From Klebsiella phage NU-KP11: a stretch of DNA of 64,000 bases. The stretch lies in the sequence record OR644643.1; one strand, 5' to 3'. Positions 1,101-45,396 of the stretch are shown piece after piece. The stretch's first letter is position 1. Every line of letters starts with the position of its first letter. A program made the position numbers and the translations under genes. Under the pieces are notes generated by a model, which searched no databases, was not told the DNA's origin, and saw nothing but the letters and a program-made list of their open reading frames with translations.

Positions 1101-1160
1101 AAAAGCCCTTGACTTCGGTCAGGGGCTTTTGCTATATTAGCCATATCGAAACGAGATACC
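1101..1160 (+). promoter_or_regulatory. terminator hairpin with an embedded sigma70-like promoter (TTGACT -35 inside the stem, 18-bp spacer, TATATT -10); copy A of a repeated cassette
   Basis: AAAAGCCCTTGACTTCGGTCAGGGGCTTTTGCTATATTAGCCATATCGAAA. Hairpin GCCCTTGAC/GTCAGGGGC plus T-run. A near-identical copy lies on the minus strand at 19001-19047. Confidence 0.55.
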
Positions 1161-19016: not shown

Positions 19017-19047
19017 AAGCCCTCAACCGAAGTCAAGGGCTTTTTGA
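19001..19047 (-). promoter_or_regulatory. copy B of the terminator plus sigma70-like promoter cassette (terminates nrdD; drives the downstream small gene)
   Basis: Minus strand AAAAAGCCCTTGACTTCGGTTGAGGGCTTTTGTTATATTGGGCCTATCGAAAAAGGAGACAGATTATG is near-identical to 1101-1160. Stem changes are compensatory (G-U wobbles). Confidence 0.55.
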
Positions 19048-21965: not shown

Positions 21966-22817
21966 TTACATTAAGTCATCCAGTGTTTCAGGGTATGTAT
22001 TTACGTCGCGTTTCTGATAGTTGCACACGTAGACTTCTTGCGTTTTATTTTGTTCGTAAGAATCAGTATGCTGGCCTAACAGATACTTTTTATCGAGGTT
22101 ATGCACATTATATTTTTGCATCCACTCGATCAGGATATCATTTTGCTTTCCTGCATGATGTGTAACGTTTGATAAACCAAACTTGATACCATCAGAGTTT
22201 AAATTATCGAGAAAATCATATAATTCATGCTCTCGTTCTTCGTTCCAGAATTTGTTATAAACTGCATCAGTGATCAGGTACGGCGGATCGCAGTACACAA
22301 AATCATTCAAACAGATATCAAGATCCTTAAACGATGCGCTAGAGAATTCAATTCCCCGAACATTATTTTTGAAGTGTTCAAACCGTTTAACGGTAGAATC
22401 ATTCAATGTTCTACAACCAAAATTGGCGTTAAAATCGCCTTTATCGTTGGTTCGATTAACATTACTAAACGAATGCAGGATTAGAACATAGAGCCATAGC
22501 GGATCCTTGTTCTTATTATATGCATCACGAAATGTGAGATACGCTTCTTTCTCGTTCTTACCCAGACCATACTGTTTAATCAATTCTCGCACCGGAGAGA
22601 GGTCAGGAAGCATTTGAAGGCGCTTATACATATCAATCAACGTCCGATCGTAATCGTTGCTTAGAACGGGTTTAGGGACGTTTAGTGACACACTCAACCC
22701 ACCACAAAAACAGTCGATGAATCGCATATAGCTGTTTCTGTCTGGAAATAATTTGAACAGTTCAGGAAGTAGCTTTTGCTTGTTTCCTGTGTATGGGATC
22801 ACACCATAATAACTCAT
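21966..22817 (-). CDS. dam: DNA adenine methyltransferase Dam (GATC)
   Basis: IPYTGNKQKLLPEL...FIDCFCGGLSVSLNV...DFVYCDPPYLIT..YNKFW is colinear with T4 Dam. Confidence 0.9.
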   Translation of the reverse strand: MSYYGVIPYTGNKQKLLPELFKLFPDRNSYMRFIDCFCGGLSVSLNVPKPVLSNDYDRTLIDMYKRLQMLPDLSPVRELIKQYGLGKNEKEAYLTFRDAYNKNKDPLWLYVLILHSFSNVNRTNDKGDFNANFGCRTLNDSTVKRFEHFKNNVRGIEFSSASFKDLDICLNDFVYCDPPYLITDAVYNKFWNEEREHELYDFLDNLNSDGIKFGLSNVTHHAGKQNDILIEWMQKYNVHNLDKKYLLGQHTDSYEQNKTQEVYVCNYQKRDVNTYPETLDDLM

Positions 22818-37165: not shown

Positions 37166-37399
37166 ATGAAGAGTTTCAACGATTTTCGACTTTATGAGGC
37201 GGCTATTGATGATTTCATGAGCAAGGTCGCCTCTTGCCGTACTATGGACGGCCTTAAAGAGCTTGAAAAATATTACAAAAATCGTGTAAAAGAAGTTGAT
37301 GTTGCACCGTCAGACGATATTTCTATGCGCGATGCGCTGAAAGGTCGAGCCGAAGAATTAAAGGCCGAACTCGAAAGCGGAGAAGAAGAAAAGTTCTAA
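37166..37399 (+). CDS. uvsW.1: UvsW.1-like small protein (77 aa)
   Basis: Size and position immediately after uvsW as in T4. Acidic C-terminus. Confidence 0.65.
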   Translation: MKSFNDFRLYEAAIDDFMSKVASCRTMDGLKELEKYYKNRVKEVDVAPSDDISMRDALKGRAEELKAELESGEEEKF

Positions 37400-37402
37400 A
37401 AA

Positions 37403-37432
37403 GAAGCCCCAACCGAAAGGAAGGGGCTTTTG
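37403..37432 (+). terminator. rho-independent terminator after uvsW.1
   Basis: GAAGCCCC-AACCGAAAGGAA-GGGGCTT followed by TTTGT. Confidence 0.6.
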
Positions 37433-37833
37433 TACATTTGCTTAACGCCAGTGCTGTACTATTCTGGCTATTCTATTCACATGCCCTTGATCGAAGGTAT
37501 ATTATCAATCACCCCGCCGAAGGTAAACTCCATCGGACGGCGCAAAAGAGTACGCCTATCATCCAGCATTCTTTTATCAAGCCCCTTTCGGGTACACATG
37601 TATTTAGGACGCGATTTTGTTGCCTCCATCGCCCGTTTTGCCTCCGTAATGGGGAACTATGGGATCCAGGCAAAGAACCCCGTACAAGCCTCATTCATTA
37701 CGCATAATCGGTTTGTCATGCCTATGGCATAGTTTTACCTATCCTAAAAATCAGGATGTTCGTCAGATTCTAACAGATCCGGACGTTCATCACGGTCTGT
37801 AATTCCTTCACCATATCCAATCATAAGATTCTC

Positions 37834-38010
37834 CTACAGCAACATTTGAACTTCATTCAGATCATCGGATTCGTTGATCTCGCCGCTTTTTGTTTTTTCT
37901 GCGATGTAGTCAGCACAGATAGTGCTACACACGCGCCCGGATTCAGTCACATAACCAGTAGAAGGAACCGGACACTTGCACACTACACATTTTTCATTTT
38001 CAGTAGACAT
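37834..38010 (-). CDS. unannotated small Cys-rich ORF (~58 aa, MSTENEKCVVCKCPVPSTGYVTESGRVCSTICADYIAEK...)
   Basis: Read from the sequence. TAATG stop/start overlap with uvsY. Below the track cutoff. Confidence 0.3.
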   Translation of the reverse strand: MSTENEKCVVCKCPVPSTGYVTESGRVCSTICADYIAEKTKSGEINESDDLNEVQMLL

Positions 38011-38429
38011 TATGCACCACTTTCTAATTTACGGATCTCCAACATGTTTTTGATAGAGTATCCTTTGTTTTTGACGATATCCAGTGCTTTACTGGTGAAA
38101 TCTACCACCATGTCATAATACTGGATCAGTTTGTTGGTTTCTACAATCTTCGGATCCCCAGCGATCGCGATTTTGATTTCAGTAGTCCCAGTATACACCA
38201 CTTCGCACATTTCTTTGTCATGTCTTCCGGTGTAGTACAACATACGATCCTTCACATCAGCTTCTTTTTTAGCATGAAGTTGGATCAGTTTTTTCTTCGC
38301 GTTTGAATGGTAACGAAGCCATTTAGCCCAAATCTTAGGGATATCCGCTGATTCTGATTGCAACTTGAGGGGATCTATCAGCATATCCTTTTCAAGTTCA
38401 TTTTGCAGATCTTCTAATTTCAAACTCAT
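38010..38429 (-). CDS. uvsY: recombination mediator UvsY
   Basis: LEDLQNELEKD..ID..KLQ.E.A....W.KWL..HS..KK matches T4 UvsY (137 aa) in length and sequence. Confidence 0.85.
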   Translation of the reverse strand: MSLKLEDLQNELEKDMLIDPLKLQSESADIPKIWAKWLRYHSNAKKKLIQLHAKKEADVKDRMLYYTGRHDKEMCEVVYTGTTEIKIAIAGDPKIVETNKLIQYYDMVVDFTSKALDIVKNKGYSIKNMLEIRKLESGA

Positions 38430-38439
38430 AACATACTCA

Positions 38440-38690
38440 CCAATTTACCCAGTTGATCTATAATATACTATATTAATTTGTAGTCAAATTTAAATTGATC
38501 TAATATAATATATTATTAAAAGAATAATTATACATGATCTAATTTATAAAATCAAATTTATTTTTACTTGATTTCAAAAATTATTTGATCTATAATAATT
38601 ATAATTAATAAATTTTATCATAAATCATTTATAAATTCAAGATCTAATTTAATATTAATTATAATTATTAAAAGATGGAGTAAGTTTCCC
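38440..38690. repeat. AT-rich intergenic region with five spaced GATCTA-A/T-rich iterons (candidate oriF-like origin or Dam-sensitive regulatory region)
   Basis: TTGATCTATAATATA (38455), TTGATCTAATATAAT (38497), ATGATCTAATTTATAAAAT (38536), TTGATCTATAATAATT (38587), AAGATCTAATTTAATATT (38641). Spacing 39-54 bp. Directly upstream of uvsY, where T4 oriF maps. Confidence 0.5.
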
Positions 38691-38730
38691 TACTCCACCT
38701 ATTGAATATTATCCCCGTTGGGTTATACTA

Positions 38731-40044
38731 TCAACCCAGTTTAGGAAGTTTGATACCCACAATCTGACTCATCTTAGATTTACCTGAGAGGTTTACCCAG
38801 TCATCACCTTTCACAAGTCTTTCGTTTGCAGCAGTGGTATATGGGTTAACCGATAAACCGTAGCGCATCAGAATAGCAACTTTAGGCTGTAAGGATTGAG
38901 GATCAACAGAAATCTTGATCGAACCTGCCTGATCAGCTTCTGTGTATGGCGTATAGAACAGAGAGCCAACATGATCCATTTCACCCAGATCATACTTGCA
39001 ACCAGTCAGCAGGTAATCAAACGGTGTATTGGTGTCAGTATAGACATAATAACCGTTTTTAAGTCGCCCTGTCGCTAACGGGTGGGTTTCATCGGTTTCA
39101 TGCATCCAACCAGACGCAGCCAGAACGCCTACAACGCGAGAAGATGCCAGGACATAGGTAGCTTCAAATGAAGTCGTTCTATTCATTTCCTGCCCCATTT
39201 CACACACTAATTGATACAGGAAACGACCTAAAGCCGGAGCATCCTTTGCAGTGTATGCGGTTGTAGCATCGAAAATGCCGTTTGTGATTACACCATCAAC
39301 GTTGTAACGATTTGATACGTTGATCAGAGTCTGAATGATATCTTTGTTTACTTCTTCACTGGCAACAGTACCCAAAACATCTTCAATCACATTTTCTGCG
39401 TTGAATTGGTTTGCTTCCAGATCCTGCATAAGTTCCACGGTCATTTCAGTTTTGAATTTGCGGGAACGAACGTTGATATTCCAACGATCCATTTCGAAAG
39501 AAGTTGTACTAATATCTTCGCTGGTTTCATACTGACTTGTTGGCGCGGCTTCGCTTGCCATGCGTAATTTATTGCTGAATAATGCGACCATAATCGCTTC
39601 ATCAATATCAGCACCTGCGAGAGTTACGCTATCAGTTACTTCGTATACAACATCACTTGTCGGGTGTTTGAAAACTTGGCCTTTGGTGTAGGCAGTACCA
39701 ACCGTACCATTTGAAATATTATCGCGGCTTGCATACTTACCGGAATAGGTAGCAGCGCTGGAAAACGTCATATCGCCTTTAGGGTTACGATAACGCACAC
39801 CGAACAGAGTTGCGGTAGGTAAATTAGTTTCCTGAATCGCTACAAGTTCACCGTAGATCAGGTTGTTTACCGCACGGGTAAGAGATACCAGATCCGGACG
39901 GGTATTAGCTACGTTAATTGTTTCTGTTCCGGTTGCCTCATCAAGAACCTTTTTAGACAGGCCAGGCGGTAGCTGTGACTGACGCACCAGCTTGTTAATT
40001 GTGTAAAATTTTTCACTCATTTTATGTTCCTGCGTTATTGACAA
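38731..40044 (-). CDS. 24: head vertex protein gp24
   Basis: Paralog of gp23 fold. Position after 23. 437 aa vs T4 427. Confidence 0.85.
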   Translation of the reverse strand: MSITQEHKMSEKFYTINKLVRQSQLPPGLSKKVLDEATGTETINVANTRPDLVSLTRAVNNLIYGELVAIQETNLPTATLFGVRYRNPKGDMTFSSAATYSGKYASRDNISNGTVGTAYTKGQVFKHPTSDVVYEVTDSVTLAGADIDEAIMVALFSNKLRMASEAAPTSQYETSEDISTTSFEMDRWNINVRSRKFKTEMTVELMQDLEANQFNAENVIEDVLGTVASEEVNKDIIQTLINVSNRYNVDGVITNGIFDATTAYTAKDAPALGRFLYQLVCEMGQEMNRTTSFEATYVLASSRVVGVLAASGWMHETDETHPLATGRLKNGYYVYTDTNTPFDYLLTGCKYDLGEMDHVGSLFYTPYTEADQAGSIKISVDPQSLQPKVAILMRYGLSVNPYTTAANERLVKGDDWVNLSGKSKMSQIVGIKLPKLG

Positions 40045-43825: not shown

Positions 43826-45396
43826 AAGTTTTCCTCTTCCGCTTCTGGATTTTTAAAACGTTCTTCTTTTGATTCTTCTTCTATCTGTTTGGCTTCGCTT
43901 TGAATTTCCTCATCAGACATCCGGAGAACTTCTTTCATTACGTATTTATGGGAGATATATTTGCCGACCACTCCTTCAAGTTGGCCCATCAGGTTTAAAC
44001 GGCGTTCCAAAATCTCAATATCTTTGATTTCGGAATAGTAAGAATCTTGCTGATATACAAAAGCAATCTTACTTACGTTTTCATCCCATTCATCTTCTGT
44101 AATGATTTTCTTCGCGATCAAGTTAGTTTTTAACGGATCCGCAAGAACAGGGTTGAATTGAATTTGCAATTCGCGAATAAATTTGCTAAAGTTCAATTCG
44201 TCGCGGGTAATACCGCCATCGTTACCCAACTGGATACCGCCATCATCGCGAGGCATACGGCTTAACGGAATACGCAATGCTTCGTACAGCTTACGGTTAA
44301 ACCATTTAACATCGTCGATATCAGAGAAGGCAGTGCCACCAGGAAGCGTTGAAACTTCGGTAACTGCTTTACCATCACGACGCATCAGCCAATAGTCCTC
44401 TGTCATTGACAGGTTATTTTGCTGATTCTTAACTTTACCAGTGCTCGCGTCATATACAACACGGTTTTTTAAGCCCTGTGCAATGTTATTTACGTACTGT
44501 GTAGCTTTAGGGCCACCCATCTGACCTACGTCGATATAGAACACACGACGTTCAGGCGCACGGGTAATACGGTAAATCACCATAGCATCTTCCAGCAAAC
44601 GCAACTGGTTAGCTGGCTTGACCGCGCGGTGCAGGTAGCCTATAATGTTGTTGTCGCAATCTTCAAGGCCGCTATGAGCGTAAACAATCGCAGAGCGAGG
44701 AATTTTTACCTTGTCATTGTGACTATAAATCTGTCCGTTGTAGCTATAACCGTTTTTCGGTGCGGTGTATACGAAGTATTCACGATAGCCACGGAAAATT
44801 TTAACCCCACCGGGTAGGGTTTCTGTAACCGATTCTCGGATCAGTTCCATGCAGCGGGGATCTAACTGGCGCAATTCTTTGATGCCGTCAGCTTCATTTT
44901 TGTGCATGATTTTATGGAAATAGATACGCGAATCAACATACCAATCACGGAATAAACGAGATCCTCGGTTATCGAAATCGTGAATATTCATTACGGTATC
45001 GAGTTCTTCCATGATCTTATCTTGGATATTTTTACTAAAATTCGTTTTAGTGAGATCCATCGTAACAATATCTTTTCCTTGTTCATTAACAATCGCTTCG
45101 TTAATGATTTCAGAAACAGCGTTTTCCACTTCCGGATATGTCATGATACCACGGTATGTATTTATTAGCTGTGTTTTGTTCTGAATTCGCGGATCCTGTC
45201 CGGAATAGAACTGTTGGAACACAGAAGAATAACGCTGGTTTGATAAGTCCGTTTCGATTTCGTGCGCCCCATCGTTATTTTTCGGAGGCGCAATCGAACC
45301 TGTATCATCTTTTAATTGGGCTTCAAATTCCATTTCATCCTGTTTGGCGAAATTTTTGAAAAACCCTAACACATTGTCTAATCCAAAAAAGTTCAT
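43822..45396 (-). CDS. 20: portal vertex protein gp20
   Basis: 524 aa (T4 524). Position and size. Confidence 0.9.
   Translation of the reverse strand: MNFFGLDNVLGFFKNFAKQDEMEFEAQLKDDTGSIAPPKNNDGAHEIETDLSNQRYSSVFQQFYSGQDPRIQNKTQLINTYRGIMTYPEVENAVSEIINEAIVNEQGKDIVTMDLTKTNFSKNIQDKIMEELDTVMNIHDFDNRGSRLFRDWYVDSRIYFHKIMHKNEADGIKELRQLDPRCMELIRESVTETLPGGVKIFRGYREYFVYTAPKNGYSYNGQIYSHNDKVKIPRSAIVYAHSGLEDCDNNIIGYLHRAVKPANQLRLLEDAMVIYRITRAPERRVFYIDVGQMGGPKATQYVNNIAQGLKNRVVYDASTGKVKNQQNNLSMTEDYWLMRRDGKAVTEVSTLPGGTAFSDIDDVKWFNRKLYEALRIPLSRMPRDDGGIQLGNDGGITRDELNFSKFIRELQIQFNPVLADPLKTNLIAKKIITEDEWDENVSKIAFVYQQDSYYSEIKDIEILERRLNLMGQLEGVVGKYISHKYVMKEVLRMSDEEIQSEAKQIEEESKEERFKNPEAEEENF

Follow-up and report, generated by a model that had tools for sequence, protein, structure and literature searches.

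Three paralogous AT-rich, GATC-dense elements of Slopekvirus genomes, one of them at the uvsY promoter, as candidate transcription-activated replication origins

In the 64,000-nt stretch of the genome of Klebsiella phage NU-KP11 analysed here (sequence record OR644643.1; hereafter the window), the 301-bp spacer between gene 24 and uvsY raises the question of what is served by DNA that lies directly upstream of a recombination mediator gene, consists mostly of A and T, and is punctuated by copies of a GATC-containing box. The 1.5 kb around this locus is 99.8% identical to Klebsiella phage vB_KpnM_05F (05F) and 96–99% identical to about 110 other Slopekvirus genomes; the source of the window is a Slopekvirus and belongs with the KP15/KP27 group of T4-type phages. 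A preliminary description had taken the spacer for an iteron region and a candidate oriF-like origin or Dam-sensitive element. It missed that the region is one of three paralogous elements in the genome. We suggest that these elements may well be transcription-activated replication origins that also supply the uvsY promoter, and, judged from their sequence, they appear to be the best candidates so far for the origins of this phage.

The element in the gene 24–uvsY spacer, which we call R3, has the composition that the preliminary description gave it, with 12.1% G+C over 38445-38675, and its core is the sole stretch of the window with less than 22% G+C over 150 bp. The five GATCTA boxes, spaced 39–54 bp apart, lie where they had been placed, and uvsY does start at 38429 on the minus strand. 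Written as WWGATCTA, the five boxes of R3 are all on the plus strand, follow one another at 42, 39, 51 and 54 bp, and make up five of the eight matches in the window (Table 1). Such a cluster is not expected from base composition: mononucleotide shuffles of the core hold a mean of 0.15 GATC, with none of 20,000 reaching five, and first-order Markov simulations hold a mean of 0.43, with one in 20,000 reaching five.

Scanning the whole 05F genome (174 kb), we find exactly three segments with less than 25% G+C over 200 bp, namely R3 and two elements that lie outside the window, R1 between rnh and gene 55 and R2 between gene 3 and a 262-codon open reading frame (ORF). These segments hold 9 (R1), 9 (R2) and 7 (R3) GATC, against 0–1 in the next most AT-rich intervals. 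By nearest-neighbour energies, no other duplex segments of the genome are as unstable as these three, whether at 60, 100 or 200 bp, with instability z-scores of 7.6, 6.9 and 6.1 versus 3.7 for the fourth segment; R3 is the most extreme (7.6 at 200 bp). In the three cores taken together (733 bp), GATC occurs 22 times and none of the 23 remaining orderings of its four letters more than three times, and roughly one third of the G and C bases there belong to GATC. Across the 05F genome as a whole, GATC is the commonest of the 24 orderings (1154 occurrences) and CTAG is strongly avoided (78).

The three elements, each about 250 bp long, are paralogous. Their local alignment scores against one another are 70–82, compared with shuffle maxima of 33–44, and a BLAST search with R2 returns, for nearly every one of the roughly 110 Slopekvirus records, three matching places per genome. 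A genome-wide motif search, which the preliminary description had proposed, finds TGATCTATAA five times in the 174-kb genome and every time inside R1–R3; because all copies lie in these three loci, the repeats are not ordinary promoter -10 regions scattered through other spacers. The three-way alignment keeps CTTGA, a 17-nt spacer ending in TGATC, and then TATAA, which together form a promoter-like site that we call P1; beyond 14–16 bp of A/T only there follow ATTTTA, 17 nt and nnTCAA, a second promoter-like site, on the opposite strand, that we call P2. The consensus across copies is TTGAyy-N17-TATAAT for P1 and TTGAnn-N17-TAAAAT for P2. CTTGA, TGATCTATAA and the P2 -10 hexamer TAAAAT are invariant in all three 05F copies, and the gap between the two -10 hexamers consists of A/T only in each of them (15 bp in R3, 16 bp in R1 and 14 bp in R2).

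Within R3, three promoter-like sites point toward uvsY and two run the opposite way, antisense to gene 24, whose terminator and 3' end lie ahead of them; that two box-containing sites point this way had also been overlooked. The proximal uvsY promoter has a counterpart in the RB43 group of phages (TTGACT-16-TATAAT), and its -35 hexamer overlaps that of the plus-strand site at 38481-38509. P1 agrees with the sigma-70 consensus at 10 of 12 positions and is a predicted promoter antisense to gene 24; downstream of it comes A/T-only DNA first, and no ORF. Because the -10 hexamers of P1 and P2 are 14–16 bp apart, the two would open the same A/T-only segment, and their start sites, as derived from the spacing, are predicted to lie no more than a couple of bases apart, near 38604. 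A 41-nt sequence recurs after 90 bp, 38469-38509 and 38559-38599 being 71% identical, and a unit with back-to-back promoters is thus present twice in R3.

This arrangement leads us to read the boxes as probable parts of sigma-70-like promoter sites, each beside a hexamer, and not as iterons. In a classical iteron origin, modelled on plasmid origins or on what has been suspected of the T4 oriE repeats, the boxes would bind a phage-encoded initiator, which would then open up the A/T tract beside them. A row of five repeats on one strand within A/T-rich DNA would suit such a design, as would the TA that flanks 15 of the 22 GATC of the three elements and the recurrence of a WTAGATCWW flavour in the sister genus. 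The iteron label nevertheless did not survive, and we consider an origin of this kind improbable. The repeated core is only 8 nt long, with tails common to pairs of boxes over 13–15 nt, and besides being irregularly spaced and set in promoter hexamers the boxes show no consistent helical phasing (cumulative offsets of 4.0, 7.7, 12.6 and 17.7 turns). Tandem Repeats Finder brings up nothing beyond a trivial 13-nt A/T repeat; R3 has neither the regular direct repeats of about 17–22 bp nor the adjacent initiator gene of iteron/Rep systems. In R1 and R2 the GATC are 5–14 bp apart and in both orientations, and some isolates have lost individual boxes. No initiator candidate was found: the ORF beside R2 (05F 115227-116015) has no Pfam match and falls in phrog_7322, a PHROG family of unknown function. 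This 262-aa ORF is conserved beside the gene 3 copy in Slopekvirus and Pseudotevenvirus alike; at that position T4 carries no gene.

The number and positions of the elements are kept in the sister genus. In the Pseudotevenviruses that we compared (RB43, RB16, leB, Miller, GAP161 and others), the 24–uvsY spacer holds two back-to-back sigma-70 promoters, one directed to uvsY and one antisense to gene 24, most of them with GATC in the promoter spacer, and the pair flanks an A/T core that has inverted repeats of about 40 nt on either side. The RB43-group element consists of the A/T core TATAATATTTATATTTTATATATAGAGAAAACAGTAC, inverted repeats of the GAGCGAAGCGA type and flanking TAGATC boxes. Cronobacter phage leB carries a near-identical element in the rnh–55 and gene 3–ORF spacers in addition to the 24–uvsY spacer, and WTAGATCWW boxes flank these copies as well. 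BLAST with the RB43-group element finds 198 places in 66 records, with three per complete genome among the matches listed, and in none of the records among these matches is a feature annotated under it. The Slopekvirus and Pseudotevenvirus elements cannot be aligned with each other, but they occupy the same three spacers in three copies each. In Krischvirus, Jiaodavirus, Karamvirus and Tegunavirus, which have the T4 order 25–uvsY, we found nothing similar in the spacers of 41–76 bp; since these other genera have such short 25–uvsY spacers, the element is confined to Slopekvirus and the RB43 lineage. One could still argue for an A/T-rich spacer that arose by chance and does nothing specific except carry a terminator and one promoter, given the frequent A/T richness of spacers after late operons and the within-genus variation that touches the boxes. 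The shuffle statistics, the excess of GATC over every other ordering (22 versus 3), the three-copy paralogy and the retention of copy number and position across genera make such an accident barely credible.

A more serious alternative is that the elements control transcription only, as clusters of strong early sigma-70 promoters with UP-like A/T tracts, serving uvsY at R3 and the large divergent early operons at R1 and R2, and without origin function; GATC would then be a Dam-sensitive modulator of promoter strength and the facing promoters a switch or a read-through barrier. Consensus promoter matches on both strands, with hexamers conserved among R1–R3, speak for this account, as do the positions of R1 and R2 at the head of divergent gene clusters and the promoters that the annotators of KP27 called at the R3 locus and at the gene 3 copy, R2. 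GATC in or beside promoter hexamers is also reminiscent of IS10, where pIN and pOUT are two facing, overlapping promoters with GATC at their hexamers; in IS10, however, a GATC lies inside the -10 hexamer, whereas here it adjoins the -10 (positions -16 to -13) or adjoins or overlaps the -35 hexamer. We regard transcription control alone as possible but doubtful. Ordinary early promoters, found all over the genome of this phage, are built around a G/C hairpin in the spacer and lack GATC, and the A/T–GATC architecture occurs at three loci only. At R1, moreover, the gene-proximal promoters for rnh (05F 44889) and gene 55 (05F 45085) are distinct from the central module, and at R3 two promoter-like sites are antisense with no ORF downstream. 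Of the three elements the most extreme is R3, although uvsY and one 58-codon gene are all that it serves. The two accounts overlap, since a T4-type origin is itself a promoter.

Repeated promoter elements of another kind are known from RB49-type phages, whose PeSL cassettes are intergenic sigma-70 promoters that can recombine mutually (PMC2839356). R1–R3 resemble these cassettes in being repeated, intergenic and sigma-70-like. There are, in contrast, dozens of PeSLs, which have a G/C hairpin and stand in front of small ORFs, whereas R1–R3 occur in three copies and are A/T-only, GATC-dense and without a hairpin; no G/C stem-loop of the PeSL type was found inside 38445-38668. PeSL-like early promoters number about eight genome-wide, among them those at 1103-1119 (plus strand) and 19026-19042 (minus strand), which have the form aaaagcccTTGACTtcggt...ggggcttttgcTATATT with the hairpin in the spacer. 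An exact late promoter, TATAAATA, was not found in the gene 24–uvsY spacer, where only 7/8 matches occur.

The origin reading draws on the comparison with T4, beginning with position. According to the T4 RefSeq record, oriF (rep_origin at 115321) lies at the uvsY promoter, as the preliminary description had stated, and adjoins the uvsY start, and the uvsY transcript is the primer; oriE, at 79355, is antisense to gene 5 and lies 3.4 kb away from gene 3; and oriG, at 152947, lies within gene 34 in antisense orientation, 2.2 kb from rnh. R3 thus occupies the oriF position, R1 lies near rnh in the oriG neighbourhood and R2 near gene 3 in the oriE neighbourhood, although T4 oriE and oriG are 2–3 kb off and inside genes 5 and 34, whereas R1 and R2 are in spacers. 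T4 oriE needs an early promoter, and oriE, oriF and oriG all lie near transcription-strand switches (Kreuzer and Brister, PMC3016281); R1 and R2 are at transcriptional divergence points. In design, too, R3 resembles T4 oriF, or ori(uvsY), with a predicted promoter followed by an A+T-rich unwinding element of the oriF/oriG type, as P1 and P2 both point into A/T-only, least stable DNA. Just as the primer RNA of oriE and oriG is antisense to a late gene, so the predicted P1 transcript would be antisense to gene 24. By this analogy, R3 may be functionally like the T4 origins, with a promoter directed into the least stable DNA of the genome and one promoter antisense and non-coding. The likeness to oriE is partial: in T4, an early sigma-70-type promoter is joined to evenly spaced direct repeats, which R3, with its 8-nt core and uneven spacing, does not have. 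The opening codons of uvsY (AGAAGATCT) contain a GATC, at 38409-38412, that T4 uvsY has too; it is the sole GATC common to the uvsY 5' regions of T4 and NU-KP11.

The second comparison is with methylation-controlled origins. The phage encodes a Dam GATC N6-adenine methyltransferase, as the preliminary description had noted (Table 1); this enzyme is a close homologue of T4 Dam and would act in trans should the boxes be read via their methylation state. KP15 virion DNA is almost wholly degraded by DpnI, whereas KP27 DNA is resistant (PMC3620542). From the DpnI degradation it follows that the GATC sites of KP15, whose spacer is 99% identical to that of NU-KP11, are methylated in bulk. In E. coli oriC the unwinding region is A/T-rich with a strong excess of GATC, and firing is under the control of Dam methylation and SeqA (PMC4285127). 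R3 is similarly A/T-rich, duplex-unstable and over-represented in GATC. The oriC 13-mers begin with GATCT, as do the boxes of R3 from their GATC onward. Unlike oriC, R3 has no DnaA boxes (no TTATNCACA was found within one mismatch) and no IHF consensus sites, and its GATC are 39–54 bp apart; nor does a lytic phage have an obvious need for the once-per-cycle sequestration of oriC. An effect of Dam on the elements is plausible, but it is probably not all-or-none.

Several observations weigh against origin function, and we set them together here. Promoter-like hexamers arise easily in A/T-rich DNA, and the 12 sites of this kind in the region compare with 6.2 ± 2.9 in shuffles. R1 and R2 head divergent operons, where strong promoters would be expected anyway, and they coincide with the two minima of cumulative GC skew, which are confounded with gene orientation and for that reason are not counted as independent evidence. 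In the Pseudotevenviruses each element carries only 2–4 flanking GATC, so a high GATC density is not a conserved requirement. Among natural Slopekvirus isolates, RCIP0020 lacks boxes 3 and 4 while keeping the other three, and Matisse lacks box 3; across eight isolates, three of 12 substituted columns fall within the 20 GATC-core positions, with no visible purifying selection. As single boxes are lost in natural isolates, and GATC is not conserved individually within the genus, we dropped the idea that every box is essential. Cooperative binding of SeqA has a limit of about 31 bp, and the spacing in R3 is wider than this. The T4 origins, finally, have no common motif among themselves (PMC3016281), whereas R1–R3 are paralogous. 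T4 oriF, the uvsY promoter itself, lies in a 76-bp spacer after gene 25 that has no GATC cluster, and it uses a MotA-dependent middle promoter (ATGCTTCA ... TATAAT); R3 lies in a much longer spacer after gene 24, with five GATC boxes and promoter-like sites on both strands. A Mot box was not found, TGCTT being on neither strand of the spacer, and tblastn with T4 queries against the 05F genome and the window found no homologues of MotA or AsiA (E > 2); RB43 is likewise reported to be without both (PMC1524935). The oriF likeness holds in position, while membership of the MotA-dependent T4 oriF family is not supported.

A further possibility concerns the ends of sequence records. Many public assemblies end in the gene 24–uvsY spacer or in R2, the gene 3 copy; examples are KLB10, phiKp_1, phiKp_15, phiKp_16, phiKp_18, phiKp_19, phiKp_23 and P-KP2, together with the IMG/VR contigs L012 and L015, and the gene 24–uvsY spacer accounts for at least seven GenBank records and two IMG/VR contigs. 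A DNA-end, packaging or recombination site, be it one of Dam-controlled cleavage as at P1 pac or a hotspot, would explain assemblies that start or end at the elements. P1 pac is GATC-rich and methylation-controlled, and T4 origins coincide with recombination hotspots according to the title of a paper cited in PMC3016281. The break positions, however, are spread over about 170 bp (query positions 51, 158, 176, 188, 213 and 220), and the contig pairs of about 35 kb and 141 kb, which match the two arcs between R2 and R3, form the pattern expected of repeat-induced or low-coverage assembly breaks. T4-type phages, moreover, package by headful and are not known to use a pac site. We therefore hold an end, packaging or recombination site to be very unlikely. 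The assembly ends look like repeat or low-coverage breakage, for which the three repeats offer an explanation, though some may be a real inversion or physical end.

The remaining features of the locus are collected in Table 1. The terminator hairpin that the preliminary description had assigned to gene 24 does exist, but its position is 38673-38700 and not 38686-38710, a shift of about 10 nt to the left; its folding energy is -18.5 kcal/mol (z = -5.8), and it is also annotated in KP27 and Matisse. Beyond uvsY, the 58-codon ORF overlaps the uvsY stop codon by one base (38010). It is followed by 434 bp without genes (37400-37833), between uvsW.1 and this small gene, which open with a bidirectional terminator hairpin and are indel-variable among Slopekviruses; this stretch has no Rfam or tRNA match and its folding is not unusual (z = -1.4). 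Rfam scans of 38200-38950 and 37350-37880 gave no match, and no tRNA was found there either.

Table 1. Elements, promoter-like sites, boxes and neighbouring genes (positions in the window unless the 05F genome or leB sequences are named)
Feature	Position	Strand	Remarks
R1	05F 44816-45209		rnh–gene 55 spacer; paralogous part 44860-45135
R2	05F 114867-115265		spacer of gene 3 and 262-codon ORF; paralogous part 114890-115200
R3 in 05F	05F 148641-149074		gene 24–uvsY spacer
R3, AT-rich GATC-dense element	38445..38675	.	231 bp, 12.1% G+C, 5 GATC
Box 1, TTGATCTA	38453..38460	+	GATC 38455-38458; just 3' of -10 hexamer of proximal uvsY promoter, at predicted start site
Box 2, TTGATCTA	38495..38502	+	GATC from 38497; in spacer of plus-strand promoter-like site 38481-38509
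Box 3, ATGATCTA	38534..38541	+	GATC from 38536; in spacer of minus-strand promoter-like site 38527-38555
Box 4, TTGATCTA	38585..38592	+	GATC from 38587; spacer end and first -10 bases of P1
Box 5, AAGATCTA	38639..38646	+	GATC from 38641, immediately adjoining -35 hexamer of P2
Proximal uvsY promoter (predicted), TTGACT-16-TATTAT	38460..38487	-	10/12 sigma-70 consensus positions; annotated in KP27
Promoter-like site, TAGTCA-17-TATAAT	38481..38509	+	away from uvsY; annotated in KP27
Promoter-like site, TTGATT-17-TATAAT	38527..38555	-	toward uvsY
P1 (predicted), TTGATT-17-TATAAT	38568..38596	+	TGATC immediately 5' of -10 hexamer; toward gene 24 terminator
A/T-only 15-bp segment	38597..38611	.	separates -10 hexamers of P1 and P2
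P2 (predicted), TTGAAT-17-TAAAAT	38612..38640	-	faces P1; toward uvsY
Gene 24 intrinsic terminator	38669..38700	-	hairpin 38673-38700, U-run 38669-38672
Gene 24 (capsid vertex protein)	38731..40020	-	
uvsY (recombination mediator)	38010..38429	-	start at 38429
Cysteine-rich 58-codon ORF	37834-38010	-	DUF2685 match, uvsY.-2 type, E = 2e-7
Phage Dam (GATC N6-adenine methyltransferase)	21966..22817	-	Pfam PF02086; full-length match to T4 Dam, PDB 1YFJ, E = 3e-85
Cronobacter phage leB element copies	L021 31841-32162; L022 4191-4446; L002 2234-2498		

Taking the elements as transcription-activated origins, we propose that host RNA polymerase would, early in infection, open them or leave RNA–DNA hybrids there, and that the opened elements would then act as replication origins, the equivalent in a MotA-less lineage of the T4 oriF/oriG design in which a promoter is coupled to an A+T-rich unwinding element. 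The proximal promoter at 38460-38487 would simultaneously drive early expression of uvsY, and methylation of GATC by phage and host Dam would likely tune melting, promoter strength or SeqA binding. A bolder version, which we think unlikely, is that R1–R3 are three origins evolving in concert, with P1 and P2 as facing starts and with firing made dependent on Dam by the dense GATC; it would extend to the Slopekviruses and, in a different sequence form, to the RB43-group phages. Were it true, one element could provide leading-strand primers in both directions, and the Dam gene of T4-type phages would acquire a function through the dependence of firing on the phage enzyme. We know of no function for T4 Dam.

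T4 is the only T4-type phage with mapped origins, and because these share no motif the origins of other T4-type phages could not be found from sequence. In the literature on Slopekviruses, KP15/KP27, RB43 origins, PeSLs and T4 genomes we found no description of the elements, Petrov 2006 (J Mol Biol) lying outside this search, and they are unannotated in nearly all public records among the matches listed. They form a small and sharply defined family, three members per genome, in the same three spacers of two sister genera. The concentration of GATC in a genome that also carries a T4-type Dam gene offers a concrete place to seek a role of phage Dam, and the question of where replication begins in therapeutic Klebsiella phages becomes addressable by a few short experiments.

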